Source of the DNA: Peptococcaceae bacterium BICA1-8
Lineage (GTDB): Bacteria; Bacillota; Peptococcia; Peptococcales; BICA1-8
DNA: 64,000 nt
Direction: 5' to 3'
Assembly: GCA_000802045.1 (NCBI GenBank)
Contig: JUEF01000135.1
Coordinates: 8,287-72,286, forward strand
A program made the position numbers and the translations under genes. Shown piece by piece: positions 8,620-51,276 of this stretch; within the stretch, counting starts at the first letter, position 1, and each line of letters starts with the position of its first letter. Under the pieces are notes generated by a model that worked only from the letters and a program-made list of their open reading frames with translations, had not been told where the DNA came from and searched no databases.

Positions 8620-8810
8620 ATTTAACCACGGGCCCCTTCAGGGCACACGGATATACACGGTTAAAAAAATAAATAATATTAAAAATTATTTGTCTATCCT
8701 GAATGAGGCAAAACCCTAATTCATTACTATGGAAGTACTTATTGTTGCTGTGTCATCTCCTAATCCATACCGTGTTCATCTGTGTGCCCCAGAGGGGCCC
8801 GTGGTTAAAT
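8620..8810. mobile_element. MITE/BIME-like 191-bp element bounded by 33-bp inverted repeats
   Basis: Left end is ATTTAACCACGGGCCCCTTCAGGGCACACGGAT. The reverse complement of the right end is ATTTAACCACGGGCCCCTCTGGGGCACACAGAT (29/33 identical). No ORF inside. Confidence 0.6.
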
Positions 8811-10818: not shown

Positions 10819-10921
10819 TTTTCTAAACATTTTTTTGTTGAATGCCCGAAAGAAGGAATATGAGGAAATAATGGCGAAATAAAGGTAATAAAAAATTCTT
10901 ATAGTTTGGGGGCATTTGATA

Positions 10922-11833
10922 TTGGTTAATGATAGCATTAGGGTCTTTCTGGCGGTAGCAGACAAAAGGAACTTTTCTAAGGCTGCTAAATCCTTGTTTT
11001 TGACCCAACCTGCAGTAAGCTTTCAGATTCAGATGCTAGAACAATATTATGGCACAGTCTTATTTGACAGAGTCAATCGCAATATTACATTAACATCTGC
11101 TGGTGAACTCCTATTGAGTTATGCGCAGGAATTAAGTACTCTTCAAGCAAATCTTGAAAGAGAAATGCAGGAGCTTACCGGTACAATTAAGGGTAGGTTG
11201 ATGCTGGGCGCTAGCACAACCATAGGTGAATATGTTTTGCCCTACCTGGTAGGAGGATTTAAAAAGCAATTTCCCGAAGTTGACGTAAGCTTAGTGGTAG
11301 CTAATACTGAGGATATTGAAACAAGTATTCTCAATACTACTTTAGATGTAGCATTAGTAGAGGGTCCTGTGAGTGGTAAAGATCTGAATACGGAGAAGTT
11401 TCTTGATGATGAATTAGTATTAATTACTCCGATGGATCACCCTTGGGTAAATAATAAAAGAATCTCTGTTTTTGAGTTAAGCCAATATCCTTTTATCACT
11501 AGAGAGAAAGGTTCAGGAACAAGGCATATTATGGAGAATGCTTTTAAAAAGGTGGGTTTTAACCCAAATAATCTGAACATTATAATGGAATTAGGTAGTA
11601 CTACTGCTATTAAAGCAGCAGTATCTAGCGGATTAGGTGTTTCAATCATTTCTGAATGGGCCGCTAAGGATTTGGTAAAACAAAACAAGTTGGCGACTAT
11701 AGCTATACATGAAACAAAGTTTGAACGCCAATTTACTGTTATTTATCATGAGAAAAAATTTAGAACAAAGGCTGCATATGAATTTCTAAACTTTTTGCGT
11801 AGTGAAGAGGTCCATGATATGCTAAAACAATAA
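10922..11833 (+). CDS. LysR-family transcriptional regulator (paralog 1, YeiE-like context)
   Basis: HTH region FSKAAKSLFLTQPAVSFQIQMLE. Start set by alignment to paralog 2 and a GGGGG RBS; the ORF track starts at 10916. Confidence 0.85.
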   Translation: MVNDSIRVFLAVADKRNFSKAAKSLFLTQPAVSFQIQMLEQYYGTVLFDRVNRNITLTSAGELLLSYAQELSTLQANLEREMQELTGTIKGRLMLGASTTIGEYVLPYLVGGFKKQFPEVDVSLVVANTEDIETSILNTTLDVALVEGPVSGKDLNTEKFLDDELVLITPMDHPWVNNKRISVFELSQYPFITREKGSGTRHIMENAFKKVGFNPNNLNIIMELGSTTAIKAAVSSGLGVSIISEWAAKDLVKQNKLATIAIHETKFERQFTVIYHEKKFRTKAAYEFLNFLRSEEVHDMLKQ

Positions 11834-11858
11834 TTTATTAATAAGGCAGGGAACGTTC

Positions 11859-12746
11859 GTGCTGATACGTAATAGTCTAAGTAAGGTTTTAAGGGAAAAA
11901 GAGATAACATTAGCACAACTAGCAGAGGAGAATAACATCCCCATAGCAACCTTAGAACAAATTTATTTAGGACACAAAGAGTTTACTCCTGAAATCTTAA
12001 ATAAAATAGCAGATTACTTAAATATTTCCCAAGAAGCTATATTATTTGACAGTAAAAAAAATATTTATGATAATATTGGTATCCAGCTCAGACAAATTAG
12101 GGAAGAAAAGAAGATGACCTTAATTCAATTGGGTAAAATATCCGGTGTTTCTTATACTCATATCAGTGAAATTGAGCGAGGGAAAACCTGCGCTTCCCTA
12201 AAAACTTTAGAAAAACTGGCCATAGTTTTAGAAATTCCTACAAGATATTTTTTTCAACTTGAGGAAAATTTTACCTTGGGTGATAAAGTAAGAAGGTTAA
12301 GGGAGAAGCAGAATCTTACCCAGGTTCAGCTAGCAGAAAAATTTGGTGTATCCCTAAGTCTAATAGGGCAAATTGAAACTGGTAGGGTTAAGCCTGCATT
12401 AGATACTTTACAAAGCATTGCCAATGTTTTTGGAGTGAATATTTGTTATTTTCTTATGACAGAAACTGAGGAAATGTCTTTGAGACAGGCGAACTCTGGC
12501 TGTGCAACTTCCTATGATAAACTTATAGAATTAACTCAAGGAATTCAGCCCCAAGGTTTTGCTTTAATAATTGATTTAATAAATGTATTAAAAACCCACA
12601 ATCGTTTTAATATCAATGATGAAATTATAAATAACCAGACTAAAGAACTATTAGATATTATGGCTGATCTTTCTGAGGATGATAAAAATTATATTATTGA
12701 AAACGCCCGTTGGGTTTTAAAAAAAGCAAAATCAAATACGCAATAA
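11859..12746 (+). CDS. Protein with three tandem XRE-type HTH domains plus a ~90-aa C-terminal domain
   Basis: Three repeats of the XRE pattern: ..ITLAQLAEENNIPIATLEQIYLG.., ..MTLIQLGKISGVSYTHISEIERGK.., ..LTQVQLAEKFGVSLSLIGQIETGR... Confidence 0.8.
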   Translation: MLIRNSLSKVLREKEITLAQLAEENNIPIATLEQIYLGHKEFTPEILNKIADYLNISQEAILFDSKKNIYDNIGIQLRQIREEKKMTLIQLGKISGVSYTHISEIERGKTCASLKTLEKLAIVLEIPTRYFFQLEENFTLGDKVRRLREKQNLTQVQLAEKFGVSLSLIGQIETGRVKPALDTLQSIANVFGVNICYFLMTETEEMSLRQANSGCATSYDKLIELTQGIQPQGFALIIDLINVLKTHNRFNINDEIINNQTKELLDIMADLSEDDKNYIIENARWVLKKAKSNTQ

Positions 12747-12768
12747 ATCGCCCAAAAGGCGATTTTTC
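12745..12768 (+). terminator. Intrinsic terminator
   Basis: AAATCGCC-CAAAA-GGCGATTT followed by TT; begins on the last base (12745) of the final sense codon CAA (12743-12745), so the TAA stop codon (12746-12748) lies inside the 5' stem. Confidence 0.7.
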
Positions 12769-13073
12769 CTATTTAGTACCTTCTACACTAGTTATATTCT
12801 GATAAGTCTTGTTAAATAAATTTACATTAATGTGACCGAACTTTCTTTAGATAAAAAGAAGGGAATAATAAAATAATTGTTGAATGTTGTAAATTGGGGT
12901 GATAAGGGACAGTATAAACATACATTATTAAACAAATTTCTTTACTATATTTTTCTGCTAGAAGTTTCTAAAATGGTTTAGAAATAAATAGTAGGTATTC
13001 AACGAAAGAGTGTAAAATCTAATTAATAAATATAAAAAAACTATTAATTATTTATGAAAGGTGGAATACGACT

Positions 13074-13985
13074 TTGTTAAATGATAGTATTAGAGTATTT
13101 CTGACAGTTGTTGATAAAAAAAGTTTTTCTAAGGCTGCAAAAGCATTGTTTCTTACACAGCCAGCTATTAGTTTTCAAATTCAGATGCTTGAAGAATATT
13201 ATGGGACAAGACTTTTTGATAGGGTAAGTAGGAATATTTCTTTGACTCAGGCCGGGCATTTATTGCTTGGATATGCTAATCACATGACTAAATTGCAAAG
13301 TGAGCTAGAGAGAGAAATGCAAGAATTAACCGGAACTATCAAAGGACGGCTATTAATCGGTGCCAGTACAACTATTGGTGAATATATTGTTCCCTATCTT
13401 TTAGGTGCATTTAAGAAAAAATATCCTGAGGTAGAGCTCTCCTTAGAGGTTGGTAATTCAGAGGATATTGAAAATAAGATTCACGATACATCATTGGATA
13501 TAGGGCTTGTGGAAGGACCGGTAACCGTTAAGGATATTGAAAAGGAACTGTTTTTAAAAGACCAAATGGTTTTAGTAGTTTCCCATGACCACCCTTGGGC
13601 TCAACTGGATAAAATATCCGTATTTGAATTAGATAAATTCCCCTTTATTTCTAGAGAAAAGGGGTCAGGGACAAGAATTGAGACTGAGCAGCATTTGAAA
13701 AAGACGGGTTTTTCTGCAAATAATTTAAAAGTTATTATGGAATTGGGAAGTACTTCTGCGATAAAAGCAGCAGTGGAAAGCGGCTTAGGTATGTCTATTA
13801 TCTCTAAGTGGGCCGCAAAAGAAAAGGTTAAACTGGGGCAGCTTGCGCAGCTTAATTTCAAGGAGGATATTTTTGAGAGAGATTTTAATGTTATCCACCA
13901 TAAGAAAAAGTTCCGTACCCAGGCAGCTGATGAGTTTCTGCGTTTTATAAAAACAAGTGAGGCTTTAGATTTATTAGAAAGGTAG
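13074..13985 (+). CDS. LysR-family transcriptional regulator (paralog 2)
   Basis: Collinear with the 10922-11833 product along its whole length (same HTH and TGTIKGRL motif). TTG start after AAGGTGG. Confidence 0.85.
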   Translation: MLNDSIRVFLTVVDKKSFSKAAKALFLTQPAISFQIQMLEEYYGTRLFDRVSRNISLTQAGHLLLGYANHMTKLQSELEREMQELTGTIKGRLLIGASTTIGEYIVPYLLGAFKKKYPEVELSLEVGNSEDIENKIHDTSLDIGLVEGPVTVKDIEKELFLKDQMVLVVSHDHPWAQLDKISVFELDKFPFISREKGSGTRIETEQHLKKTGFSANNLKVIMELGSTSAIKAAVESGLGMSIISKWAAKEKVKLGQLAQLNFKEDIFERDFNVIHHKKKFRTQAADEFLRFIKTSEALDLLER

Positions 13986-14040
13986 GATATTCACAAAATT
14001 AGACCTACTGTATCTACAGAGTTAAATATTATTTTATATA

Positions 14041-14086
14041 AATAAAGAAGAAGCACATTAAATAGTGCTTCTTCTTCTTTATTTAT
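14041..14086. terminator. Bidirectional hairpin terminator between convergent genes
   Basis: AATAAAGAAGAAGCAC-ATTAAATA-GTGCTTCTTCTTCTTTATT, flanked by A/T runs on both sides. Confidence 0.75.
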
Positions 14087-14382
14087 TATTTCTTACTTTC
14101 CATCCAAGATATAAATTTAAAGCAGGCGTATCCCCAAAGGAAAAAAAGGCCGAAGAAGAGGAAGGGTTGCTTAGTTCCTAAAGTAATGCTCTTTTCTCCA
14201 AAAAATATTTCTTCCCATCCAGGGAGATCCGTATAATAATATTGACCAGGGCCAAAGTCCAGACCCTCAATCAGACCTATATTATTACGCATTATGTATA
14301 TTGCAACAATTAGTACTGAAGCTAGAACTAGGATACTTAGTATATTTAGCCTGCGGGTCGTAAGGAATTTCTGACTACCCAT
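14086..14382 (-). CDS. Small two-TM membrane protein, family A/B (paralog of 18098-18367)
   Basis: GAGGTG RBS. Shares GxGxYYY, GTKxP, FFxLFFxW and CxxFxxWME motifs with the other small ORF. Confidence 0.7.
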   Translation of the reverse strand: MGSQKFLTTRRLNILSILVLASVLIVAIYIMRNNIGLIEGLDFGPGQYYYTDLPGWEEIFFGEKSITLGTKQPFLFFGLFFLWGYACFKFISWMESKK

Positions 14383-14617
14383 AACAACACCTCAATATGA
14401 TATGATTTTATAACTTTATTATACTGCTAATTGATGAATTGAAAAGATAATTCCAAAAAAACATTATATTAAAAGCTGTCTTCCTTTTAAAGCTCGCCTC
14501 CTTCCAGTGGAGCTAAAACTATGGCAAAGGAATATGTTTTCCGCTTAATAATTAAATTATAAGCATAAAAGGAACTTATGCATATCCCTCTTTTGTACTA
14601 ATTGACGAAATTTGCTG

Positions 14618-14651
14618 AAAAAAAAGGGTCCATTCCGTAAAGAATGGACCC
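14618..14651 (-). terminator. Intrinsic terminator of YeiH paralog 1
   Basis: On the minus strand: GGGTCCATTC-loop-GAATGGACCC followed by T8. Confidence 0.85.
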
Positions 14652-14664
14652 TTTAAAGAAGCAA

Positions 14665-16002
14665 TTATACTGTTAATACTGGAATTGGGAATATAACGCC
14701 ACTGAGTAGTAACCAAGCAACTAATAAGGTTAATACTAGGTTAAAGCTTTGACCTACAATGTATAACCAAAGTGGCTTACCGCCTTGGACAAGCTCAGCC
14801 ATTTCTTTAAAGTTGGACTCAAGGCCGATACAGACAAATGCCATACAGAAGCACCAGCCCTTCCAGCCACCTGTTAGACCTAATAGAGTTTTTGTTTCTT
14901 TAGCACCAATTGCCGGCTCAACAATAAAGGAGAAGATTAAAGACGCACCAATAAAACCAAGGATAAATTTGGGGAAACGGTGCCAGATTTCATCTGCTCC
15001 CACAGAAGGTCCGTCAACATCTTTCTCAACTTTTGTTGCAAAAAATACAGCAATGGCAAAAGCAATAACACCAATTAATACGTTTTGAATCATTTTAACA
15101 AGAGCAGCAACCTGACCCCCTAGTGGCCCTAATGCTTCACCGGCTAATACAACAGCACCTGTTGCGTCAACTGTACCACCGATCCAAGCACCGCCAACCA
15201 TAGGATCCATACCAATAGCTTTAATAAAGATAGGCATACCAACCATCATTAAAACTGTAAAAATTAAGGATAAGCCAATTGCAAAGGTTAAATCGTCCTT
15301 TTTAGCTTTGGAAGCGGCTGCTGCAGCGATAGCGGCTGAAACACCACAAACAGAAGTAGCAGTAGCGATAACTATTACCATAGGCTTACTGGTCATTTTA
15401 AGTATTTTTGTACCATAATGCCACATGAAAATAATTACGATAGGAGTAACGAACCAAGCAATACCTAAACCATAGATACCAAATTTAACTACATTGGAGA
15501 AAAGAACCTCAGCACCCATTAAAACCAGACCGGTTTTAATGTAGTATTCAGTTTTTACAGCAGGCTTTAACCAATCGGGAGTTTTTACAGTATTACTTAC
15601 TAAAAGACCTACTGCTAATGCCCAGAAAGCATACTCTACATATTTTTTCATAGTTGCTTGAGCACCTAATATATAGGCAATTGTAGCTAAGAGGAATATT
15701 ACAGGGAAGGCAATTGCAAATTTAGGTACGTTTTCGCCCATAAATACTAATCCAATTGAAAAAAGAGCAGTTAATACAACCATTGTGATTAGTAAACTAG
15801 CAATATCAAAAGAACCTAAGAAACTTGGAACCTTTTCGGTTCCCCATGTTGCGATCTTGGATGCATTAAACTTAAAAGCTCCTGTGGATTTACTGATAGC
15901 AGCTATTATAATTACGATAAGTCCAAGCCAAATTGCCCACCAGTCTTCTTTCTTTATTAAATCCGACCATTTAAACTTACTAGCTGTTACGACATCTGAC
16001 AT
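14665..16002 (-). CDS. YeiH/UPF0324 family membrane transporter (putative sulfate-exporter family), paralog 1
   Basis: Polytopic, 445 aa. Start moved to MSDVV (16002) by alignment with the paralogs and a GGAGGTG RBS 8 nt upstream. Confidence 0.9.
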   Translation of the reverse strand: MSDVVTASKFKWSDLIKKEDWWAIWLGLIVIIIAAISKSTGAFKFNASKIATWGTEKVPSFLGSFDIASLLITMVVLTALFSIGLVFMGENVPKFAIAFPVIFLLATIAYILGAQATMKKYVEYAFWALAVGLLVSNTVKTPDWLKPAVKTEYYIKTGLVLMGAEVLFSNVVKFGIYGLGIAWFVTPIVIIFMWHYGTKILKMTSKPMVIVIATATSVCGVSAAIAAAAASKAKKDDLTFAIGLSLIFTVLMMVGMPIFIKAIGMDPMVGGAWIGGTVDATGAVVLAGEALGPLGGQVAALVKMIQNVLIGVIAFAIAVFFATKVEKDVDGPSVGADEIWHRFPKFILGFIGASLIFSFIVEPAIGAKETKTLLGLTGGWKGWCFCMAFVCIGLESNFKEMAELVQGGKPLWLYIVGQSFNLVLTLLVAWLLLSGVIFPIPVLTV

Positions 16003-16383
16003 ATAAAGCACCTCCAAAATTTAAAATATTTTATAGGGTATTTGAACAATTAATTTTTTTAATCCCTCCTTATAATTTAGATAAATAACGCCGCGGTACA
16101 GTCATTGAGCATATTGATGCTGTCATACACACAAATTTAGGGTGTGTTTTAATTATAAGTTATCAAAAAAAATCTTTATATCATTCTTTAATACCATCTT
16201 TATTAAATGCATTAGGAAAATTTATTAATTTAGGAAAAAGCATTTGTTGAACTAAAAAATTAAGATAATGCAGGTAGATGAAATTAGACTAAATCTCATA
16301 ATAATAAAATAAAGAGGCCAGATGGCCGCTTTAAAAGGAAATAATTATTCAATTATCATTTTTCGTAGTAGTAGCATTTTAGT

Positions 16384-16420
16384 GAAAAATGGCACCATTC
16401 CTGAAGGAATGGTGCCATTT
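16384..16420 (-). terminator. Intrinsic terminator of YeiH paralog 2
   Basis: On the minus strand: AAATGGCACCATTCC-TTCA-GGAATGGTGCCATTT followed by TT. The stem is related to the paralog 1 terminator, with compensatory changes. Confidence 0.8.
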
Positions 16421-16424
16421 GATA

Positions 16425-17768
16425 TTATACTGTTAATACTGGAATTGGGAAGATAACGCCGCTTAGTAATAACCAGGCTACTAATAAGGTTAATACTAAG
16501 TTAAAGCTTTGTCCCACGACATACAGCCAAAGTGGCTTACCACCTTGAACAAGCTCAGCCATGTCCTTGAAGTTAGACTCAAGACCAATTGATACGAAGG
16601 CCATGCAGAAGCACCATGCTTTCCAACTTCCAGATAAGGAAAGTATAGCTTTAGTATCCTTTGTACCTATTGAAGGCTCAACCAAGAAGGAGAATATTAT
16701 CGATCCTACAATAAAACCAAGAATAAATTTAGGGAAACGGTGCCAAATTTCATCGGCGCCCACAGAGGGTCCATCAACATCTTTTTCAACTTTTGTTGCA
16801 AAAAATACGGCAATGGCAAAAGCGATAACACCAATAAGAACGTTTTGAATCATTTTAACCAGAGCAGCAACTTGACCTGCTAATGGCCCTAAGGTTTCTC
16901 CGGCAAGTACAACTGCACCGGTAGCATCAATGGTTCCACCCATCCATGCTCCACCAAGCATCTCATTCATACCAATAGCTTTAATGAACATAGGCATGAA
17001 GACCATCATTAATACGGTGAAGATAAGGGTTAAACCGATGGCAAAGGTTAAGTCTTCTTTCTTTGCTTTAGAAGCAGCGGCAGCGGCAATAGCTGCAGAA
17101 ACCCCGCAAACCGAAGTAGCTGTCGCAATAACGATAACCATAGGTTTGCTGGTCATTTTCAAGATTTTGGTACCATAATACCACATAAAGACTATAACAA
17201 TTGGAGTAACAAACCAAGCAATACCTAGACCGTAGAAACCAAATTTAACAACATTGGAGAATAGTACTTCAGCACCCATCAGTACAAGACCTGTTTTAAT
17301 ATAGTATTCTGTTTTAACGGCCGGCTTTAGCCACTCGGGGGTTTTTACGGTATTACTTACCGCAAGTCCGACCACTAGTGCCCAGAAGGCGTACTCAATA
17401 TATTTTTTCATTGTGGCTTGAGCACCAAATACATAAGCAATTGTTGCTAAGATAAAAACAACAGGGAAGGCGATTAAGAAGCCTTTCACATCTTCTCCCA
17501 TAACTTTAAGACCGAGAGCAAATAATGCACCTAGTACAATTAGACTGAAAATTAATAAGCCTACTTGACCATTAAAAGCATCCATAATGCTAGGCGCCTT
17601 TTCATTTCCCCAAGTAGCTATTTTGGCGGCCTTAAAGGCGAAAGCACCTGTAAATTTACTTATTGCTGCTAAAGCTAATACAATGAATCCAAGCCAAATT
17701 GCCCACCAATCTTCTTTCTTTGTTAAATCAGACCATTTAAACTTACTAGCTGTTACGATATCTGACAT
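16425..17768 (-). CDS. YeiH/UPF0324 family membrane transporter, paralog 2
   Basis: 447 aa. Very similar to paralog 1, including an identical C-terminus LLSGVIFPIPVLTV. Confidence 0.9.
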   Translation of the reverse strand: MSDIVTASKFKWSDLTKKEDWWAIWLGFIVLALAAISKFTGAFAFKAAKIATWGNEKAPSIMDAFNGQVGLLIFSLIVLGALFALGLKVMGEDVKGFLIAFPVVFILATIAYVFGAQATMKKYIEYAFWALVVGLAVSNTVKTPEWLKPAVKTEYYIKTGLVLMGAEVLFSNVVKFGFYGLGIAWFVTPIVIVFMWYYGTKILKMTSKPMVIVIATATSVCGVSAAIAAAAASKAKKEDLTFAIGLTLIFTVLMMVFMPMFIKAIGMNEMLGGAWMGGTIDATGAVVLAGETLGPLAGQVAALVKMIQNVLIGVIAFAIAVFFATKVEKDVDGPSVGADEIWHRFPKFILGFIVGSIIFSFLVEPSIGTKDTKAILSLSGSWKAWCFCMAFVSIGLESNFKDMAELVQGGKPLWLYVVGQSFNLVLTLLVAWLLLSGVIFPIPVLTV

Positions 17769-18097
17769 TTAATACACCTCCATAAAATTTTAGATAAAGA
17801 CGGAAGAAAAACATAGTAAAAATTTTAGTCAGTCCTCACCACCCATATAAATGACTTATTTGATCGATAAATTATTACGATTATATTATATTAAAAATTG
17901 TTATACACTGATAATCCACCATTCTTACTATTTTTTGACAAAAAAGTAAGTCAGGTAATAAGGGGTTGCGCTATATATAAATTTAGTATAAAAACATAAA
18001 TAGGAAAATACTTGCGGCTACTTGTTTTATTCTTTTTTAGCAGGAAATTGGGTACTTTTAGTTGAAGTAAAGCATGAGGTGATATGAGGTGATAAAT

Positions 18098-18367
18098 ATG
18101 AAGCAGAGGCCAAAAATAAATAGTAAGTTAGGGAAAATGAGTTTATTGATAATTTTAATAATTATAGTAGTAATTGTTTATGCTATTGTAGTAGATCCTT
18201 GGAACATAAGTGAGGCGCCTTACGGCGCTGGGGATTATTATTATGATGAAGTAGAGGGTTATGATTTTAGCATAAGCATAGGTACTAAACATCCTATTAT
18301 ATTTTTCATTTTGTTTTTTGGCTGGGCTTTTGGCTGCTGGCATTTTTTAAAGTGGATGGAAAGATAA
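18098..18367 (+). CDS. Small two-TM membrane protein, family A/B (paralog of 14086-14382)
   Basis: ATG at 18098 lies 5 nt after GAGGTG. Shares motifs with the 14086-14382 product. Confidence 0.7.
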   Translation: MKQRPKINSKLGKMSLLIILIIIVVIVYAIVVDPWNISEAPYGAGDYYYDEVEGYDFSISIGTKHPIIFFILFFGWAFGCWHFLKWMER

Positions 18368-18463
18368 AGCTTGGGATTTTTGATAAAAAGGATCATAATT
18401 AAACTTCGTTATAAAAAAAATAGGTTAATGAGAGAAAAACAGTAATAATAATTGAGTGTAAAG

Positions 18464-18492
18464 AAAAAAAGCCGAGCTATTGCTCGGCTTTA
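18464..18492. terminator. Bidirectional terminator (small ORF on +, YeiH paralog 3 on -)
   Basis: A7-GCCGAGC-TATT-GCTCGGC-TTTAATT. Confidence 0.75.
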
Positions 18493-18499
18493 ATTAATT

Positions 18500-19843
18500 T
18501 TACATTGTTAAATTGGGTATTGGGAAGATAATTCCACTTAACAGCAACCAAGCCACTAAGAGAGTTAATACTAAGTTAAAGGTTTGACCAACAATGTATA
18601 ACATTAATGGCTTGCCGCCTTGTACAAGCTCAGCCATATCTTTAAAGTTAGATTCTAATCCTATACAGGTAAAGGCCAGACAGAAGCACCATCCTCTAAA
18701 GCCTTTAGCTAAGCCCGTAACGCCCTTTGTTCCAGCTGCACCCAAAACGGGTTCTACTATAAAGGAAAAAATGACTGAGGCTGCTATGAAACCAAGGATG
18801 AATTTTGGGAAGCGATGCCAGATTTCACTAGCTCCTACAGCAGGGCCGTCGACATCTTTGTCTACTTTAGTTGCAAAAAATACAGCTATGGCGAAGGCGA
18901 TAACGCCTATAAGTACGTTTTGAATCATTTTAACCATTGCAGCTACTTGACCAGCCAAAGGTCCCAATGCTTCTCCAGCAAGAACAACTGCACCGGTAGC
19001 ATCAATTGTTCCACCCATCCAGGCTCCACCTATCATTTCGTTCATGCCAATAGCTTTAATAATCATAGGCATGAAGATCATCATTATAACTGTAAAAATG
19101 AGGGTTAAACCAATGGCGAAAGTTAAATCTTCTTTTTTAGCTTTAGAAGCTGCAGCAGCGGCAATGGCTGCCGAAACACCACAAACAGAAGTCGCGGTAG
19201 CGATTACAATAATCATGGGTTTGCTAACCATTTTTAATACTCTAGTACCGTAATACCACATAAATATTACTACTATTGGAGTAACAAACCAGGCTATACC
19301 TAATCCGTAAATACCGAATTTTACAATGTTTGAAAAGAGAACTCCAGAACCCATTACAACCAAACCTGTTTTTATATAATACTCTGTCTTAACAGCTGGT
19401 TTTAGCCATTCAGGGGTCTTTATAGTATTGCTAACCAAAAGACCAATAGCCAGCGCCCAAAAAGCGTAGCCTAAATAGTTTTTTATGCCGGCATTAGCTG
19501 AAAAGAGATAGGCTAATGTTGAAAGAATGAATACTACCGGGAAACCAATGAGGAATTTCCCAACATCACCGCCCATTACTTTCAGACCGATAGCGAATAA
19601 AGCGCCTAGTATTATCATTGTTATTAATAATGATGGTAAAGTACCATTAAAGGAATCAAAAATACTAGGTGCTTTCTCTACACCCCAGGTATTAAGTTTA
19701 GCGGCTTTAAAGCTAAAAGTACCAGTAGTAGAACTAATAAATGAGAGAATAAGGATAATAAATCCAAGCCAAATTGCCCACCAATCTTCTTTATTGATAA
19801 GATCTTTCCATTCAAACTTACTAGTCGTTACGACATCAGACAT
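18500..19843 (-). CDS. YeiH/UPF0324 family membrane transporter, paralog 3 (most diverged)
   Basis: 447 aa, collinear with paralogs 1 and 2. AGGAGGTG RBS. Confidence 0.9.
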   Translation of the reverse strand: MSDVVTTSKFEWKDLINKEDWWAIWLGFIILILSFISSTTGTFSFKAAKLNTWGVEKAPSIFDSFNGTLPSLLITMIILGALFAIGLKVMGGDVGKFLIGFPVVFILSTLAYLFSANAGIKNYLGYAFWALAIGLLVSNTIKTPEWLKPAVKTEYYIKTGLVVMGSGVLFSNIVKFGIYGLGIAWFVTPIVVIFMWYYGTRVLKMVSKPMIIVIATATSVCGVSAAIAAAAASKAKKEDLTFAIGLTLIFTVIMMIFMPMIIKAIGMNEMIGGAWMGGTIDATGAVVLAGEALGPLAGQVAAMVKMIQNVLIGVIAFAIAVFFATKVDKDVDGPAVGASEIWHRFPKFILGFIAASVIFSFIVEPVLGAAGTKGVTGLAKGFRGWCFCLAFTCIGLESNFKDMAELVQGGKPLMLYIVGQTFNLVLTLLVAWLLLSGIIFPIPNLTM

Positions 19844-22526: not shown

Positions 22527-23399
22527 ATGGAATTTCCTCAATGGGATATTCTAATTATCGGTTGTGGGCCCGCTGGGCTTTCAGCGGCGGTAAATGCGAC
22601 AATTCGTAACAAAAAGGCAATAGTATATGGCGGAGAGTTTTGCAGTCCCAAGCTTCATAAAGCTCCACATGTCAATAACTATTTAGGTTTCTGGGATGTA
22701 TCAGGAGAAGAATTGCGGAAAAAATATCTCAATCATGTTCAACAGTTAGATATAAAAATGGAATGTCATAAAATTGATAATATTTACCCTGCCGGGAAAT
22801 CTTTTAATGTTGTCAGTAAGGGCAATATGATTATGTGTAATGCAATAATAATTGCAGTAGGCTTGCAAAATCCTAAATACCTGCCAGGAGAAGAGGAACT
22901 GTTGGGCAAGGGTGTGGGTTATTGTGCTACCTGTGATGGCCCTTTGTATAAAGGGAAAAAGGTTGCAGTAATTGGTTATAACACAGAGGCAGAGGAAGAG
23001 GTTAACTATTTGGCCGGGTTAGCTAGCCAAGTTATATATCTTCCGTTGTATCAAGGGCTAGGAAGTATCGACAGTAGAGTTCGAATTTTAAATGAAAGAC
23101 CCAAGGCTCTATTAGGTACAGATAGATTACAAGCACTAGAAACGGAAGGGGAAACCCTAGAACTAGATGGATTATTTATTATTCGGGATAGTGTTCCTCC
23201 AGCTCAGCTTTTGCCTGGCTTGGAGCTTGAGGAAAACGCAATAGTAGTAAATAGAAAAATGTCTACAAATATAACCGGTGTATTTGCTGCCGGTGACTGC
23301 ACCGGTGCCCCTTATCAGCTGGCCAAAGCAGTAGGTGAAGGAGCAGTTGCAGGACTAAGTGCTGTGAGTTATTTGGAAGAAATGAATAAGGGAAAGTAG
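22527..23399 (+). CDS. Thioredoxin-reductase-like flavoprotein with a CATC redox motif but no recognisable NADPH-binding motifs
   Basis: IIGCGPAGLSAA FAD fingerprint and a CATCDG active site. The position of GGGxSA reads GYNTEA, and no HRRxxxR motif follows. Confidence 0.8.
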   Translation: MEFPQWDILIIGCGPAGLSAAVNATIRNKKAIVYGGEFCSPKLHKAPHVNNYLGFWDVSGEELRKKYLNHVQQLDIKMECHKIDNIYPAGKSFNVVSKGNMIMCNAIIIAVGLQNPKYLPGEEELLGKGVGYCATCDGPLYKGKKVAVIGYNTEAEEEVNYLAGLASQVIYLPLYQGLGSIDSRVRILNERPKALLGTDRLQALETEGETLELDGLFIIRDSVPPAQLLPGLELEENAIVVNRKMSTNITGVFAAGDCTGAPYQLAKAVGEGAVAGLSAVSYLEEMNKGK

Positions 23400-23496
23400 G
23401 GGGGCGCATTGCGCGTCCTACCTCATTCTCTTGTGTAATAATCATCCTGTGAATATGATTAGGCATAATCATATGTTTTTCAATAGTAACACCTGC
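23396..23496 (-). pseudogene. Remnant of an IS200/IS605-type (COG1943/RAYT-like) Y1 transposase; HUH strand only
   Basis: The minus-strand frame reads AGVTIEKHMIMPNHIHRMIITQENEVGRAMRPP. MPNHIH is the HUH hallmark. The frame is bounded by a stop upstream and runs into the antisense of the TrxR-like gene. Confidence 0.5.
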
Positions 23497-23570
23497 TCAA
23501 AATTTTGAATCAAATTATCAATTTTTTACTGATATTGGATGACCCACTGACGCGCAATGCGCGCCCCTAC
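23396..23570. mobile_element. 175-bp element bounded by 22-bp inverted REP-like hairpins, containing an HUH-transposase fragment
   Basis: GTAGGGGGGCGCATTGCGCGTC at 23396. The reverse complement of 23549-23570 is GTAGGGGCGCGCATTGCGCGTC (21/22 identical). Confidence 0.65.
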
Positions 23571-25436: not shown

Positions 25437-25574
25437 GTCGGAAATACTTAGGGTCTAGCTTGAGCGTCTGACAATACTATGGGGACAAATTGTTGCGTCT
25501 GACATCGCTAATGGGTTGAGTTTTAGGGTCTGACAGTACTATGGGGACATTTTATTGCGTTTGACACTAGCTTT
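25437..25574 (+). repeat. Array of five ~31-bp units with GTCTGACA core (direct orientation)
   Basis: Core starts at 25437 (degenerate), 25466, 25497, 25528 and 25559. Spacings are 29, 31, 31 and 31 bp. Confidence 0.9.
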
Positions 25575-25584
25575 GAGATTTTTT

Positions 25585-25772: not shown

Positions 25773-28526
25773 ATGGCAAATAGATTTTGGTACAATATGC
25801 ATGATTTAAAAGTTTTAGAAGAATTTCAGGTTGATGTAAAAAAGGGTCTAGACTCAAAAGAGGCTCAGCGCAGGTTGGAGTTGGTGGGTTTTAATCAATT
25901 GCGGGAAAAAGTAAAAACATCACCAATTAAAATGTTTTTTAATCAGTTCAAGGATTTTATGGTTATCGTGCTTTTAGCAGCTACAATTATCTCTGGTTTT
26001 TTAGGGGAGTATGCTGATGCTATTACCATAATGGCTATAGTCATTCTTAATTCAATTTTAGGTTTTGTGCAGGAATACCGAGCAGAGAAGTCTATGGAAG
26101 CTTTAAAAAAATTAATAGCTCCTGAAGCAATGGTTATCAGAGATGGTATAGAAAAGAAAATCCCTGCCCGGGAACTAGTTCCAGGTGAACTGGTTTTATT
26201 AGAAACCGGTGTTATAATTCCTGCGGATTTGCGTTTATTAGAAACAATTCAAATGGAAATAGAAGAATCTTCTTTGACTGGTGAATCTGTTCCTGCTAAA
26301 AAAATAGCCAGTGCAATATTTGAAACAAATACCAGCTTAGGTGATAGGAAGAATATGGCCTATATGGGTACTACCGTAACCCGGGGCAAAGGAATGGGCA
26401 TAGTTGTTGATACTGGTATGCAAACGGAAATGGGGCAGATTGCGGGACTAATTCAAAAGGTTGGTGATGAACAAACTCCGCTCCAAAGAAGGTTAGAACA
26501 ATTAGGCAGATGGCTAGTAGCTTTTTGTCTGTTAATTGTGCTGGTAGTTGTTGTTACAGGAATTCTCCGGGGTGAGCCTATTTACCAAATGTTCTTAGTG
26601 GGAGTCAGTCTGGCGGTGGCTGCTATTCCTGAAGGATTGCCTGCAATTGTTACAATTGCTTTAGCCGTAGGAGTTCAAAAAATGCTTAAAAGAAGAGCAA
26701 TTATTAGGAAGCTGCCTGCAGTAGAAACCTTGGGATGTGCCACAGTAATATGTTCTGATAAAACAGGTACCCTTACTCAAAATGAGATGACAGTGCGCAG
26801 GATTGTTATTAGTAATGAAACAATTCAAATTACAGGGGAAGGTTATGATCCTAAAGGAGAGGTGGTTGTTCCCGGGGATAAATCCCGTATGATGAGGAAT
26901 AAGGAATCCTTAAATATAGCCTTTAAAATTGCCGCCTTGTGTAATAACTCAAAGCTAAGAAAAACAGAAACAGTTATAGCCGGAATTTTTAGAAAGAAAA
27001 GCTCGAATCCTTGGCAGGTTTTAGGAGACCCCACTGAAGGAGCTCTCCTAGTTTTAGCAGCAAAAGCAGGTTTTTGGAGAGAACGTGTAGAAAAAGATGA
27101 GCAAAGAGTTTATGAAATGCCCTTCGATTCTGAACGCAAGAGAATGTCTGTTATCTATCAAAATAAAGATAAGCTTAACATTTATACCAAAGGGGCCCCG
27201 GATATTGTATTAGAAAATTGCAAATATGTTTGGTGGGAAGGGAAAATCGTTCTTTTAAACCGAGAACTAAAACAAAAAATATTAGAAAATAATGATAAGA
27301 TGGCTAATGAAGCCCTTCGAGTTTTAGCTCTAGCTTATAAACAAATTTCTGCCAATTTTGACTATGAAAGAAATGAGGCAGAGATTGAAAATGACCTGAT
27401 TTTTGTAGGATTAGCTGGAATGATTGATCCGCCCCGTCCTGCAGCAATTAAAGCTGTAGCTGTATGTAAAAACGCAGGGATAAAAACAGTTATGATAACC
27501 GGGGACCATAAAATCACTGCCCAGGCAATTGGTAAAGAACTAAAAATTTATAATGATCAGGACCTTATTTTAACGGGCAGCCAATTAGATGAAATGCCAG
27601 ACCCGGAATTAAATAAAATTATTAATAATGTAACCGTTTATGCCAGAGTATCACCAAAACATAAGCTCAGGATTGTTAAAGCCCTCAAAAAGCGGGGACA
27701 TGTGGTTGCAATGACAGGGGACGGAGTAAATGATGCCCCAGCAATTAAAGAGGCGGATATTGGAATTTCCATGGGAATAAATGGTACCGATGTAACAAAG
27801 GAATCTTCCTCTATGATTTTAGGGGATGATAATTTTGCAACTATTGTAGCTGCCGTTGAGGAAGGTCGGGCTATTTATGATAATATCAGGAAATTCATTA
27901 GATATCTTTTATCCTGTAATGTAGGTGAAGTTTTAACAATGTTTTTTGCTTCATTATTGGGATTGCCTTTGCCTTTATTGCCAATACAGATATTGTGGGT
28001 TAACTTAGTAACTGATGGATTGCCAGCAATGGCTTTAGGTGTTGATACAGCTGATCCTGATATCATGTACAGAAAACCTAGACATCCGAAAGAAAGCATT
28101 TTTGCCTATGGCTTGGCTAGACGCATAGCAGTAAGGGGAACATTAATAGGTGTCGGTACCCTTTTAGTATTTATGATAGGTTATTACTTAAATAAGAATT
28201 TAGATATAGCTAGAACTATGGCTTTTACAACACTTGTTTTCTCCCAGCTGTTTCATGTTTTTGATTGTCGTTCGGAAAAATATTCTATTTTTGAATTAGG
28301 CTTTTTCACCAACCCATTTTTAGTAGGCGCCGTAAGCTGTTCGGTAATAATGCATTTAATGGTAATTTATTTACCCTTTTTCCAAAAAATATTCAAAACT
28401 ACTCCTCTCTCTTTTAATAGCTGGCTGATTATAATTGCCGTTTCCGGTGGGTTAACAATTATGCAGAACGTGTATCGGAGCTTGAAAAGATATTATTTGA
28501 ATTTAGGGAGAACATTAAGGGCTTGA
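25773..28526 (+). CDS. yloB: P-type Ca2+-transporting ATPase (SERCA/YloB type)
   Basis: CSDKTGTLT phosphorylation motif plus TGDGVNDAPA, TGES and PEGL motifs. 917 aa. Confidence 0.9.
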   Translation: MANRFWYNMHDLKVLEEFQVDVKKGLDSKEAQRRLELVGFNQLREKVKTSPIKMFFNQFKDFMVIVLLAATIISGFLGEYADAITIMAIVILNSILGFVQEYRAEKSMEALKKLIAPEAMVIRDGIEKKIPARELVPGELVLLETGVIIPADLRLLETIQMEIEESSLTGESVPAKKIASAIFETNTSLGDRKNMAYMGTTVTRGKGMGIVVDTGMQTEMGQIAGLIQKVGDEQTPLQRRLEQLGRWLVAFCLLIVLVVVVTGILRGEPIYQMFLVGVSLAVAAIPEGLPAIVTIALAVGVQKMLKRRAIIRKLPAVETLGCATVICSDKTGTLTQNEMTVRRIVISNETIQITGEGYDPKGEVVVPGDKSRMMRNKESLNIAFKIAALCNNSKLRKTETVIAGIFRKKSSNPWQVLGDPTEGALLVLAAKAGFWRERVEKDEQRVYEMPFDSERKRMSVIYQNKDKLNIYTKGAPDIVLENCKYVWWEGKIVLLNRELKQKILENNDKMANEALRVLALAYKQISANFDYERNEAEIENDLIFVGLAGMIDPPRPAAIKAVAVCKNAGIKTVMITGDHKITAQAIGKELKIYNDQDLILTGSQLDEMPDPELNKIINNVTVYARVSPKHKLRIVKALKKRGHVVAMTGDGVNDAPAIKEADIGISMGINGTDVTKESSSMILGDDNFATIVAAVEEGRAIYDNIRKFIRYLLSCNVGEVLTMFFASLLGLPLPLLPIQILWVNLVTDGLPAMALGVDTADPDIMYRKPRHPKESIFAYGLARRIAVRGTLIGVGTLLVFMIGYYLNKNLDIARTMAFTTLVFSQLFHVFDCRSEKYSIFELGFFTNPFLVGAVSCSVIMHLMVIYLPFFQKIFKTTPLSFNSWLIIIAVSGGLTIMQNVYRSLKRYYLNLGRTLRA

Positions 28527-28552
28527 CATTTACTCACAGGTTAATATATTGG

Positions 28553-28655
28553 GTCTGACATATGCTTGGGGGTGAAATATCGCGTCTGACAATACTCCTG
28601 GGTGAACATTTTGCGTCTGACATTTTACTTTTGGGTTGAGATGCTGCGTCTGATG
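28553..28655 (+). repeat. Array of four ~31-bp GTCTGACA units (direct orientation)
   Basis: Cores at 28553, 28584, 28615 and 28648 (the last reads GTCTGATG). Confidence 0.9.
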
Positions 28656-28658
28656 AAT

Positions 28659-28696
28659 GGTGCTCTGTGCTCAGTGCTCAGTGTCCAGTGCCCAGT
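28659..28696 (-). repeat. Heptamer block GTGCTCA/GTGTCCA, the inverted copy of the CTGGGCACTGGACACTGAGCAC cassette
   Basis: The reverse complement reads ACTGGGCACTGGACACTGAGCACTGAGCACAGAGCACC. Confidence 0.85.
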
Positions 28697-28707
28697 AAAA
28701 AACTAAT

Positions 28708-28872
28708 AAAGCTAGTGTCAGACGCAATAAATTGTCCCCATAGTACTGTCAGACCTTACAGCTTAACCCATGAGTAATTGTCAGACGCCCAAGCTAGACC
28801 CTTGAGTATTGTCCGACCCTAAAACTTAACCTATAAGTAGATGTCAGAAACGCAAAAGCTAGACCCCTAAGT
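28708..28872 (-). repeat. Array of five ~31-bp GTCTGACA units in inverted orientation
   Basis: TGTCAGAC-type cores at 28716, 28747, 28779, 28810 (TGTCCGAC) and 28842. 28708-28755 is 46/48 identical to the reverse complement of 25527-25574. Confidence 0.9.
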
Positions 28873-28885
28873 AGAAAGGAAGTGT

Positions 28886-29734
28886 TTGAGAGTGAATTTT
28901 GTAAAAATGCATGGAGCAGGAAATGATTTTATTTTAATTAATTTATTAGAGGGAAATTCGCCGTTAGATTATTCCTTACTGGCTCCTAAGCTTTGCGACC
29001 GGAATTTTGGAATTGGTGCTGATGGACTTTTGTTCATTATGCCTTCCGAGACCGCTGATATTAAAATGAGGATTATTAATTCCGATGGTAGTGAAGCTGA
29101 AATGTGTGGTAATGGTATTAGATGTTTTGCAAAATTTGTTTATGAAGAGGGAATAATTAATAAAAATATAATAGAAGTAGAAACCCTAGCGGGTAAAATC
29201 ATCCCGGAAATTATTTTAAATAATAACAAAGTAGCTTCTGTCCGAGTTGATATGGGTGAGCCTAAGCTAGAAAGAAGCCAAATTCCAATGTTTGGAGAAG
29301 AGGGACGGGTAATTAAGGAGAAGTTAGTGATTGCTGAGAAAGAATTTGAAGTCACTGCTGTTAGTATGGGTAATCCCCATTGCGTTATTTTTGTACCTAA
29401 TATAAAAGAGATAGAAATAGAAAAATGGGGTCCTTTAATTGAAAAGCATCCAGTTTTCCCCCGAAAAACAAATGTAGAATTTGTCCAAGTTATTACCCCC
29501 TCTGAGGTTGTTATGCGAGTATGGGAAAGGGGTGCAGGCATAACTTTAGCCTGTGGTACAGGAGCGTGTGCAACCTTAACTGCGGGTGTTCTAAATAATT
29601 ATATTAATAGGAAGGCTTCTATAAAATTACTTGGTGGTGAATTAACTGTTGAATGGGAAGAAAATAATCACCTCTATATGACAGGTCCGGCGATTGAAGT
29701 ATTTCGCGGGGTAATTAGTATAGGTAGTCTATAG
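28886..29734 (+). CDS. dapF: Diaminopimelate epimerase
   Basis: FVKMHGAGNDF N-terminus and catalytic Cys motifs (MCGNGIRC, ACGTGACA). Start is TTG 28886 or GTG 28892. Confidence 0.9.
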   Translation: MRVNFVKMHGAGNDFILINLLEGNSPLDYSLLAPKLCDRNFGIGADGLLFIMPSETADIKMRIINSDGSEAEMCGNGIRCFAKFVYEEGIINKNIIEVETLAGKIIPEIILNNNKVASVRVDMGEPKLERSQIPMFGEEGRVIKEKLVIAEKEFEVTAVSMGNPHCVIFVPNIKEIEIEKWGPLIEKHPVFPRKTNVEFVQVITPSEVVMRVWERGAGITLACGTGACATLTAGVLNNYINRKASIKLLGGELTVEWEENNHLYMTGPAIEVFRGVISIGSL

Positions 29735-29773
29735 TCGATAGTCCATAATCGATAATTATAGCGAAAATTAGCT

Positions 29774-30778: not shown

Positions 30779-30888
30779 AATAGTGTGACGGCTATGTGGC
30801 TTACTGAATGACAGTGTGTAAGCTTAAGGGATATACAAATTGTCAGTGCTACAGTGCTACAGAAATTTAGTTGGTTTGTTTATTCTCC

Positions 30889-30916
30889 TAGTCACTAGTC
30901 ACTAGTCACCAGTAAC
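30889..30916 (+). repeat. Heptamer tandem TAGTCAC x3 plus a degenerate fourth unit, 18 nt upstream of the remA start
   Basis: TAGTCACTAGTCACTAGTCACCAGTAAC. An octamer pair AGTGCTAC x2 lies at 30845-30860. Confidence 0.9.
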
Positions 30917-30933
30917 TATATAAGGAGGGCAAA

Positions 30934-32086: not shown

Positions 32087-32240
32087 GATGCATCTACTCA
32101 TAGGCTTTACTGCAAGATGCATCAGATGAATGCCAATTTTTTTGATGCATCCTTTAAGTTAGACCGCAGAGCAGATGCCTCAATAGGATTTTACATGCAT
32201 AGGATGCATCCCAAAATGTATGCCAAAATAGGATTCTAGG
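32087..32240 (+). repeat. ~29-bp periodic array with GATGCATC palindromic core
   Basis: Cores at 32087, 32116, 32144, 32174 (GATGCCTC) and 32203. Preceded by TATTAGTGGGCGAG at 32038-32051. Confidence 0.85.
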
Positions 32241-34708: not shown

Positions 34709-34966
34709 TATTAAACCACGGGCCCCAATGGGGCACACGGATAAATGTCCTGTTCTATCAGGTATTCTTTGTAGGGGCGCGCATTGCGCGTCCGACTTCA
34801 CTTCTTAGTCCATAATATGCTAAAATACAATTAACAAAAAATATCACCATGGACCATTCGCCAAACTAACATGACACAAAACGTCATCAACAGAATATGA
34901 ATATAGTTTAATCCCTAAATAATTAATCTGCGTTAACCGTGTGCCCTGTAGGGGCCCGTGGTTTGA
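34709..34966. mobile_element. Second MITE/BIME-like element (258 bp) with the same inverted ends as 8620-8810 and a nested GTAGGGGCGCGCATTGCGCG hairpin
   Basis: Left end is ATTAAACCACGGGCCCCAATGGGGCACACGGATA. The reverse complement of the right end is ATCAAACCACGGGCCCCTACAGGGCACACGGTTA. The interior is unrelated to the 8.6-kb copy. Confidence 0.6.
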
Positions 34967-34979
34967 TAAAATGCTTTTT

Positions 34980-35048
34980 CTGGGCACTGGACACTGAGGA
35001 CTGGTCACGAACCCCGAAAATTTCTACGGACTCGCCCACTCGCCCACT
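34980..35048 (+). repeat. CTGGGCACTG...CACGAACCCCGAAAA cassette plus octamer pair CGCCCACT x2, ending 25 nt before the priA start
   Basis: CTGGGCACTGGACACTGAGGACTGGTCACGAACCCCGAAAATTTCTACGGACTCGCCCACTCGCCCACT. Confidence 0.85.
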
Positions 35049-37532: not shown

Positions 37533-37561
37533 CAATAGACAATAGACAATAGACCAAAGAC
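37533..37561 (+). repeat. Heptamer tandem CAATAGA x3 plus a degenerate unit, in the priA-def spacer
   Basis: CAATAGACAATAGACAATAGACCAAAGAC, followed by a TGTCCCCAGTCATTA word. Confidence 0.9.
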
Positions 37562-49991: not shown

Positions 49992-50011
49992 TATATTAAA
50001 GTTAATAATTT

Positions 50012-50121
50012 ACTCTTTCGGGGTTAGGTGCAATTCCTTACCGGCGGTATAGCCCGCGAGCCAAATGGCAGATCCGGTTTAATTCCGGAGCCGACAGTTA
50101 AAGTCTGGATGGAAGAAAGAG
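50012..50121 (+). promoter_or_regulatory. FMN riboswitch (RFN element) aptamer
   Basis: Matches the RFN core: CTCTTTCGGGGTTAGGTGCAATTCCTTACCGGCGGT..AGCCCGCGAGCC...GGTTTAATTCCGGAGCCGACAGTTAAAGTCTGGATGGAAGAAAGAG. The P1 stem closes CTCTTTC with GAAAGAG. Confidence 0.92.
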
Positions 50122-50176
50122 ATTGATTACTATTCATTGCATTTTTGCTTTTGAATGGTAATTATCTTGTTTTATT

Positions 50177-50214: not shown

Positions 50215-50500
50215 GTTTTATTAGTGGGCGAGTGGGCGAGAAGTATTATTTAACCACGGGCCCCTCCGGGGCACACCGATAAACACTGTTAAACGATAAG
50301 TGACTAAATTAATGGTTGATGCATCCCTTAAGTTAGACCTTTGAGCAGATGCATCCTGTAATTTTCACTTGCATCGGGTGCCTCCTAATCGGTGACACGG
50401 TAGCACGTCAAGGAAAGCTAGACATTCATGTTCACACGTCCTTACTAGTCACAGATCCCCGGCCACTGAGTACGAATCCCGAAAGACTGTCCCCTAATAC
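50215..50500 (+). repeat. Composite of dispersed repeat modules between the riboswitch terminator and ribU
   Basis: TAGTGGGCGAGTGGGCGAG (50222-50240). Solo ATTTAACCACGGGCCCCTCCGGGGCACACCGAT end (50248-50281). GATGCATC units (50318, 50348). AAGCTAGAC, TAGTCAC, TACGAATCCCGAAAG and TGTCCCC words (50415-50495). Confidence 0.85.
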
Positions 50501-51087: not shown

Positions 51088-51096
51088 GTTACTGGC

Positions 51097-51125
51097 TAGT
51101 GACTAGTGACTAGTGACTGGTGACT
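51097..51125 (-). repeat. Heptamer tandem TAGTGAC x3 plus TGGTGAC (reverse complement of the TAGTCAC family)
   Basis: TAGTGACTAGTGACTAGTGACTGGTGACT. Confidence 0.9.
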
Positions 51126-51131
51126 GGTAAT

Positions 51132-51166
51132 AAGGCTATAGTCCATTGACTATAGTCTATAGCCTT
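51132..51166. repeat. Perfect 10-bp-stem hairpin made of CTATAG words (possible weak ribU terminator)
   Basis: AAGGCTATAG-15 nt-CTATAGCCTT. Contains the ATAGTCCAT word also seen at 29739, 34808 and 52453. Confidence 0.6.
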
Positions 51167-51276
51167 TAGCCGATAGTCAATAGACTATAGTAGAAGTTTT
51201 TAATGACCTGCTTAGCAGGTCTTTTCTTTATCATAAATTGACTATATACTGATTGTTTTTCATAAAGGTCCTTTAT

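Follow-up and report, generated by a model that had tools for sequence, protein, structure and literature searches.

What kind of repeat stands twice as an inverted pair and once alone between the genes of a 64,000-nucleotide stretch of Peptococcaceae bacterium BICA1-8 DNA (the whole of which is referred to here as the window)? A first-pass annotation of the sequence offered two readings, REP/BIME-type paired palindromic units and MITEs whose cargo has been replaced. The first has held up: short GC-rich imperfect palindromes are found in AT-rich intergenic DNA, some alone and some in inverted dimers whose spacers vary, and they join other repeat modules in a set order. The second has not fared well against interiors that are unique and local and singles that outnumber pairs by ~3:1; no target duplication was seen, and no parent IS was found in the window or among the loci compared.

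The repeat unit and its range

Five copies of a 27-nt core, AACCACGGGCCCC-N4-GGGCACACGG, lie in the window, for which 100 shuffles give an expectation of 0.00. A scan with the pattern AACCACGGGCCCCNNNNGGGCACACGG, allowing up to three mismatches, matches them with 0-1 mismatches at 8624-8650(+), 8780-8806(-), 34714-34740(+), 34937-34963(-) and 50252-50278(+), which is where the first-pass annotation had put them. A profile HMM built from 47 copies recovers the same five and no sixth in the window at E<=10. The central tetranucleotides read TTCA, TCTG, AATG, TACA and TCCG, also as originally noted. The annotation was right about the repeat itself and short on its length, given as ~33 bp: alignment of the window copies with those of related genomes gives a full unit of ~45 nt, with a third CACGG box, of the form (T)ATTT-AACCACGG-GCCCC-NNN-GGGGC-ACACGG-ATAA-ACACGG-T(T/A)AAA. 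It also overlooked that the CACGG boxes are three and direct, that hairpin-less variants exist, and that the GTAG hairpin referred to below belongs to a second, more classical REP-like family.

A one-genome-per-species scan (185,579 species) yields 26 loci. The MAG Clostridiaceae bacterium BRH_c20a, whose DNA matches the window at 88-91% identity wherever the two were compared, accounts for 22 of these and a Peptococcales MAG (JBMNUR01) for 3; the remaining one is a chance match in a high-GC actinobacterium. No credible match was found in any other species of that collection. A metagenome scan mostly retrieved the same organism again (three of its loci are chance matches in high-GC DNA), the plasmid and phage collections have no match to the unit or to similar ends, and a literature search with sequence strings of the unit turned up unrelated primer matches only. 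The CACGG unit is a lineage-restricted repeat of a few uncultured Peptococcaceae-like bacteria. After removal of redundancy, BRH_c20a-type DNA holds at least 38 distinct hairpin-bearing units, so the further copies on which the first-pass annotation had staked its reading do exist, and in number, in the genome of this close relative. The copy number is at the low end of REP family sizes, and within the range of the small families of 20-100 units that have been reported (PMC3733652).

The three CACGG boxes of each unit all face the same way, with ~19 nt from box 1 to box 2 and 10 nt from box 2 to box 3, and the small GC hairpin is placed between the first two. Across the 47 copies boxes and stem are almost invariant; the loop varies after a near-invariant first T (TCC in 14 copies, TTC in 10, TAC in 8, plus others). 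The hairpin stem is under structural constraint: 94.7% of stem cells are paired, a share that sliding the partner column brings down to 50.5% or less, and there are compensatory changes (at stem pair 16-27, 43 copies have C-G and 4 have U-A; at pair 17-26, a single copy has G-C). The palindrome test finds a stem-loop in the 27-nt core, made of the 5-bp GC stem and outer C-G pairs; a more distal outer stem, TTTAACC/GGTTAAA, was discarded, being 70.8% paired and not clearly above controls. A lone unit shows no folding advantage over its shuffles (z = -1.4 and -1.9), in contrast to the paired element A, which folds as a single long hairpin of 40 bp (z = -10.9). Rfam has no match to the unit (only an FMN riboswitch scores above threshold), and pair A draws only sub-threshold matches to plant miRNA hairpins.

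There are variants with a shorter stem, GCCC-N3-GGGC, and others with no hairpin at all, which are three tandem decamers (for example AACCACGG ATAAACACTG ATAAACACGG); TRF scores the 3' half of the unit as a period-10 repeat. The notion that the hairpin is an independent mini-element was dropped because GCCCC-N3-GGGGC is confined to units and is not seen outside the CACGG context. Neither strand of the consensus, AACCACGGGCCCC-N3-GGGGCACACGG, carries a GTAG or CGTC tag.

Placement, pairing and mosaics

Features of the window and related loci (window coordinates unless a locus number is given)
Feature	Position	Strand	Remarks
Unit A-left	8620..8665	+	ATTT-AACCACGG-hairpin(GCCC CTTCA GGGC)-ACACGG-ATAT-ACACGG-TTAAA
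Pair A spacer	8666..8768	.	AT-rich unique DNA; no similarity to other pair spacers
Unit A-right, inverted partner	8769..8810	-	Head outward, toward lspA
Pair A neighbours			Left: unknown ORF; right: lspA
Unit B-left	34709..34744	+	Directly after metK terminator
Pair B spacer	34745..34932	.	Unique DNA with promoter-like site
Nested GTAG hairpin GTAGGGGCGCGCATTGCGCGTC	34771-34792	+	Separate REP-like family, not part of the CACGG unit
Unit B-right, inverted partner	34933..34968	-	Upstream on its own strand: CAGTGCC-type heptamers and linker GAAAAAGCATTTTATCA
Pair B neighbours			Left: metK; right: priA
Tandem octamer array AGTGGGCG	50223..50240	+	Head side of unit C
Unit C, single	50248..50293	+	No partner within 400 nt
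31-nt-period module, core GATGCATCC	50316..50377	+	After unit C
Unit C neighbours			Left: FMN riboswitch terminator, downstream of rpe; right: ribU start codon
ribU (riboflavin transporter) ORF	50524-51087		100% identical to JM58_16895 of BICA1-8
Composite: unit, then 31-mers with core GATGCATCC	Window C, L007, L016
Composite: unit, then 31-mer arrays with core TGTCAGACGC	L005, L020, L026
Composite: unit, then GGTTAAG-type heptamers and CTAGCGAA..GAAA module	L003, L009 and others
Bracketed by inverted units	L013, 148-2324		CodY and ComF-like protein
Bracketed by inverted units	L009, 4176-5247		Alpha/beta hydrolase
Bracketed by inverted units	L024, 5112-6368		DnaJ-like protein
Bracketed by inverted units	L014, 58-1449		SGNH-like protein beside MBOAT-like protein, by sequence alone

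The family is strictly extragenic: all 38 of the 38 copies scored are intergenic, and their settings include the gap between convergent genes, the DNA just past a terminator, and a 5' leader. Measured against the genes on both sides, their orientation is without bias (13 the same, 13 opposite, the rest mixed). The head of the unit (the AACCACGG side) mostly points toward the nearer gene or terminator, with a further 100-300 nt of non-coding DNA on the other side. The window copies have housekeeping genes as neighbours. Unit A-left starts ~10 nt past a terminator-like hairpin of the upstream ORF and is identical in its BRH_c20a orthologue. The interior of pair B probably holds the promoter of the downstream gene; its promoter-like site (34797-34826) is conserved in BRH_c20a. 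Between 50010 and 50524, the FMN riboswitch (50010-50124) and its terminator are followed by ~290 nt of repeat mosaic before the ribU start, so that read-through at the riboswitch would carry transcription into unit C and its mosaic leader.

The inverted arms of the window pairs are 36-42 nt long and 86% complementary. Nine pairs were detected, from seven independent loci, and all are head-out, for which the chance under random orientation is, by our calculation, (1/4)^7. Their length is 106-253 bp, with spacers of ~26-173 nt between 40-nt arms. The interiors of A and B are not similar, as the first-pass annotation had it, and neither is like the interior of any other pair. Comparing the seven independent interiors all against all gives matches between orthologues only; the pairs are therefore not copies of a single element or a single MITE, and each consists of two units bracketing local DNA.

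True singles, with nothing partner-like within 400 nt on the inner side, number ~30, and their ratio to inverted pairs is ~3:1. Seven of 32 singles match the consensus perfectly; singles differ from it by 2.1 mismatches on average and paired copies by 3.2 (p = 0.08), though the copies were found with an exact pattern, and this tilts the set toward canonical singles. Singles are the left edge of composite repeats that are common to unlinked loci at 67-75% identity, and in a three-way alignment of composites the similarity starts exactly between ATTT and AACCACGG. Behind unit C, the GATGCATCC module has the order and orientation that it also has behind the units of L007 and L016. On the head side of many copies, CAGTGCC heptamers or GTGGGCGA octamers and a short linker precede the unit.

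The nested hairpin that the first-pass annotation had pointed out in one element is GTAGGGGCGCGCATTGCGCGTC, inside pair B, and it has a perfect reverse-complement copy at 23549-23570(-). Other copies of its family are in the window at 23396-23417(+) and elsewhere at L007 (1918/2144), L021 (3980/4050) and L031 (3456/3522), mostly as close inverted doublets with compensating stems (GCGCGC/GCGCGT versus GCGCCC/GGGCGT). The separate GTAGGGGCGCGC... family does carry the GTAG tag, and a classical GTAG-tagged REP-like family coexists with the CACGG unit in the same genomes; with its doublets, the GTAGGGGCGCGCATTGCGCGTC family has the look of a classical REP/REPIN family, here in a member of the Bacillota. 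In the Peptococcales MAG (L071), the spacer between rpe and ribU is likewise full of GTAG-headed hairpins.

Other repeat modules share these spacers. Arrays of TGTCAGACGC with 3-5 repeats and a 31-nt period lie at 25451-25584, 28524-28623 and 28716-28873 of the window, as well as at L005, L020 and L026. They fill the spacers on either side of a P-type ATPase gene (25773-28526), and in the downstream spacer two of them face each other across a heptamer array. (This 3.3-kb stretch, at 25.4-28.9 kb, was considered as a transposon flanked by inverted arrays, but all it contains is the P-type ATPase gene with a spacer full of repeats on each side.) Related 31-mers with the GATGCATCC core are found at 50316-50377 and 32142-32181. 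The 31-nt arrays resemble multiple protein-binding sites. Tandem arrays of 7-8-nt repeats, together with one 15-mer, occupy many of the intergenic regions, at 28660-28696, 29725-29754, 30888-30918, 35030-35048, 37533-37561, 50223-50240, 51096-51191, 51283-51330 and 61557-61591, and are like the STRR heptamers of heterocystous cyanobacteria. Their copy number differs between BICA1-8 and BRH_c20a (by 14 nt for one array next to pair B), and heptamer arrays are also present in L077, a relative that lacks the CACGG unit. Small GTCCC-N4-GGGAC hairpins stand directly against AACCTCA/AGGCTAA-type heptamer arrays (L005 6894, L007 5053, L042 1262, L066 1274); possibly they are one more class of small repeats that sits within tandem arrays.

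Sites compared between relatives

BICA1-8 and BRH_c20a have five orthologous units in common, namely the two arms of pair A, the two of pair B, and a copy upstream of codY. By our count, in which the numbers are small, the orthologous cores differ at ~5/108 positions, compared with ~10-11% for the surrounding DNA. What has changed between the two genomes has changed by segment replacement. At the left unit of pair B, ~60 nt including the third CACGG box, which BRH_c20a keeps, have been replaced in the window by a segment with the GTAG hairpin, so that the left ~60 nt of the spacer differ; next to comF, the two genomes have different modules.

The first-pass annotation had suggested a search for empty sites, and more distant relatives have sites that are empty or differently filled. 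No units were found in 16.7 + 5.5 kb of a relative whose CodY is 89% identical, a span that takes in the sites where BRH_c20a has five units (three singles and one pair) and the site of window unit C. Its flgM and flgN are 10 nt apart, whereas BRH_c20a has a 175-nt tandem-array mosaic there, with a unit mid-way. In the same relative, and likewise in another (such loci are L067 and L075), the FMN-riboswitch terminator gives way directly to the ribU ribosome-binding site. The relative represented by L073 has the octamer array of the window (50223..50240) with no unit beside it, then unrelated modules; a degenerate unit lies in its next spacer, where the window has none. Units are stable over ~10% sequence divergence and are gained or lost over larger distances.

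Every comparison of filled with empty sites involves whole mosaic segments and none is a clean single-unit insertion. Exact insertion boundaries were not obtained from these sites; the differences are whole-segment replacements. The first-pass annotation had also proposed a check for target-site duplications, and no consistent one appears at any pair or filled-versus-empty site: no end register gives matching flanks at pairs A, B, L013, L014 or L022 (the AT-rich flanks limit the power of this comparison), and the flgM-flgN site has none.

Candidate origins

The first-pass annotation had reported no cognate transposase in the window, and we also see none, either among the 17 of 52 ORFs that were run against Pfam or, for Y1 enzymes, by tblastn. 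A RAYT or a full-length transposase flanked by the repeat ends, which it had proposed to look for, was not found: tblastn gives no match to a Y1/RAYT transposase in ~614 kb of DNA (~10-15% of the genome, and the genomes are MAGs) that includes the flanks of all exact-match units, the queries being IS200, IS608 and E. coli RAYT proteins. No repeat of more than 300 bp links the loci, and there is therefore no IS among them. The candidates for an autonomous element, in which inverted units bracket 1-2 kb, enclose ordinary genes and no transposase. The paralogous genes of the window code for PF03601 membrane proteins and LysR regulators: three tandem PF03601 (YeiH-like) paralogues, 67-84% identical in DNA, lie on the minus strand at 14665-16017, 16425-17768 and 18500-19843 (within 10916-19843), and just upstream of them are two LysR regulator genes, paralogous to each other. 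At 1880-2049, a 56-nt repeat (TAAAAGCTAGACTCTGGTGCCGAGGAATGTCCCC...) in three direct copies partly overlies a 140-aa minus-strand ORF that has no Pfam match.

On balance, and with moderate confidence, we take the CACGG units for a lineage-restricted, ~45-nt intergenic repeat family of REP/BIME-like organisation, whose non-autonomous members would be moved in trans by a protein able to read both hairpin and CACGG boxes, with no target duplication left behind. The anatomy and distribution described above are observed, and this mode of spread is what we infer. The candidate mobiliser would recognise the hairpin together with the flanking boxes, and the best precedent would be the action of a RAYT/IS200-type single-strand DNA transposase on REPs. 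Most units are singles, each forming one edge of a mosaic, with a minority of head-out inverted dimers around ordinary intergenic DNA. If the units spread in this way, any effect on the host would be limited to the formation of hairpins in DNA or in transcripts that run through the units.

The likeness to REPs and BIMEs lies in short GC-rich imperfect palindromes that are only extragenic and have stems kept by compensatory change, in the occurrence of singles and of inverted dimers with variable spacers, in mosaics that combine the palindromic unit with other motifs in a fixed order, and in the lack of target duplication. These traits match the published descriptions (PMC3733652, PMC3116915). 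The differences are a 5-bp stem with a 3-nt loop, three direct boxes, and no RAYT found. Two large REP superfamilies are defined by a GTAG or a CGTC tag (PMC3733652), and the CACGG family is outside both because it has neither. It also misfits the REPIN model: singles are the majority and show no greater visible decay than paired copies, whereas REPINs have the reverse pattern (PMC3116915), in what is an ascertainment-biased comparison; doublets are neither over-represented nor better conserved, and pair lengths (106-253 bp) are not conserved.

Some features count against this reading. No mobilising enzyme turned up in the ~614 kb searched, no clean gain of a single unit was seen, a lone unit does not outfold its shuffles, and both REP tags are missing. 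The stem is only 5 bp, and the genes that inverted units bracket are housekeeping genes. Insertion into the lagging-strand template would be expected to leave a bias that singles, which have no strand bias relative to gene direction, do not show. Much of the conservation falls on the direct repeats that flank the palindrome, as one would sooner expect of a set of sites bound by a protein on duplex DNA.

The first of the rival explanations, which we regard as unlikely, is a MITE family derived from a DDE-type insertion sequence, with terminal inverted repeats of ~40 bp that each carry three transposase-binding decamers, the pairs being mobile and the singles remnants left after loss of one end. 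The spacing of the boxes (10 nt, and ~19 nt across the hairpin) is that of binding sites on one face of the helix, ends made only of three tandem decamers do occur, and the flanks are AT-rich. In its head-out paired form (106-253 bp, non-coding, intergenic, with inverted ends of 36-42 nt and a long hairpin) the element is also like Correia/CREE, RUP and Nezha. This reading fails because the pairs have no common interior, no target duplication and no parent IS that could be found in the window or among the loci. Different pairs share nothing between their interiors (or in length), and so cannot all be copied from a single progenitor. Single ends make up most of the copies, ~3:1 over pairs with 7/32 perfect (ascertainment favours canonical singles), and what singles have in common with each other is instead their adjoining modules. 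No repeat of more than 300 bp recurs among the loci to represent an IS, and plasmid and phage records are without similar ends.

A host-functional element under selection, which we judge quite improbable and rank next, would be a binding array for a DNA-binding protein with an affinity for CACGG decamers, for instance one of the nucleoid or a transposase that the host has domesticated, or else an RNA hairpin that protects or processes transcripts. Boxes and stem that are nearly invariant while the loop varies, orthologous cores that differ less than the DNA around them (on small numbers), and the place of unit C in a ribU leader that is transcribed on riboswitch read-through all speak for it. 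Against it, the units bear no relation to gene orientation, promoters or 3' ends, have no match in Rfam, and are found in a few related genomes only, with a sister lineage that lacks them at the same sites.

Very doubtful, to our mind, is an origin with no dedicated enzyme, in which a decamer array that gained a hairpin was spread passively with mosaic segments by illegitimate recombination, template switching or gene conversion, the same process that would generate the 7-8-nt and 31-nt arrays. It would account for hairpin-less forms that are plain three-fold decamers (and the period of 10 in the 3' half), for units embedded among tandem arrays, and for differences between genomes that are whole-segment replacements and not clean insertions. 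It is hard to see, however, how slippage would produce a sharp, constant 5' boundary and a constant hairpin position in ~45 dispersed copies, and L077, with heptamer arrays and no units, indicates that the two are separable. Equally doubtful is the broader proposal that an undescribed system assembles mosaic repeats between the genes of this Peptococcaceae lineage and that the CACGG unit is one visible part of it, with the 7-8-nt arrays, the 31-nt TGTCAGACGC/GATGCATCC arrays and the GTCCC..GGGAC hairpins as its other parts and the STRR/SDR repeats as a parallel; its driver would be something other than a classical transposase, such as a decamer-reading DNA-binding or nicking protein or an RNA-templated process.

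Modular repeats of other lineages offer partial likenesses. The pneumococcal BOX elements are hairpin-forming boxA-boxB-boxC intergenic repeats of a Bacillota genome, with modules of 45-59 nt; we know of no cognate transposase for them, nor of any association of their modules with 7-8-nt tandem arrays. Short modules in a fixed order and a Bacillota host are what the CACGG family shares with BOX; the sequences are unrelated and the CACGG unit also occurs alone. Elhai et al. are said to have described, in 2008, cyanobacterial SDR hairpin repeats that lie in or next to heptamer tandem arrays (STRR) and are nested in other repeats; to our knowledge, how SDR spread has not been established. Phylum and sequences differ in this case, and the CACGG hairpin, never being seen outside the CACGG context, is not an independently mobile mini-element. 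Integron attC sites are bounded by RYYYAAC ... GTTRRRY, measure 57-141 nt and form same-orientation arrays of promoterless cassettes by an integrase gene. The unit has the edges ATTTAAC and GTTAAAY, but it is ~45 nt long and occurs in mixed orientations with housekeeping genes between copies and no integrase seen, and it was rejected as an attC site; resemblances to a sigma-54 promoter, a DnaA box and an intrinsic terminator were likewise rejected on inspection.

If the REP/BIME-like reading is correct, it adds a family of this kind from Bacillota, a phylum in which such repeats are poorly documented: the text of the 2013 survey never mentions Firmicutes or Clostridia (PMC3733652). A family with no GTAG/CGTC tag and no RAYT found could point to a different mobilising activity. 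No long-standing open question turns on it, and its importance is modest. The repeats lengthen 5' leaders, as in the ~290 nt between the FMN riboswitch and ribU, and they mark fast-changing intergenic segments that could serve in strain typing. They also appear to break short-read assemblies, MAGs included: the BICA1-8 contig that carries codY (L076, 7583 nt) has its 3' end inside the mosaic that adjoins comF, and it is there that an inverted pair of units stands in BRH_c20a.
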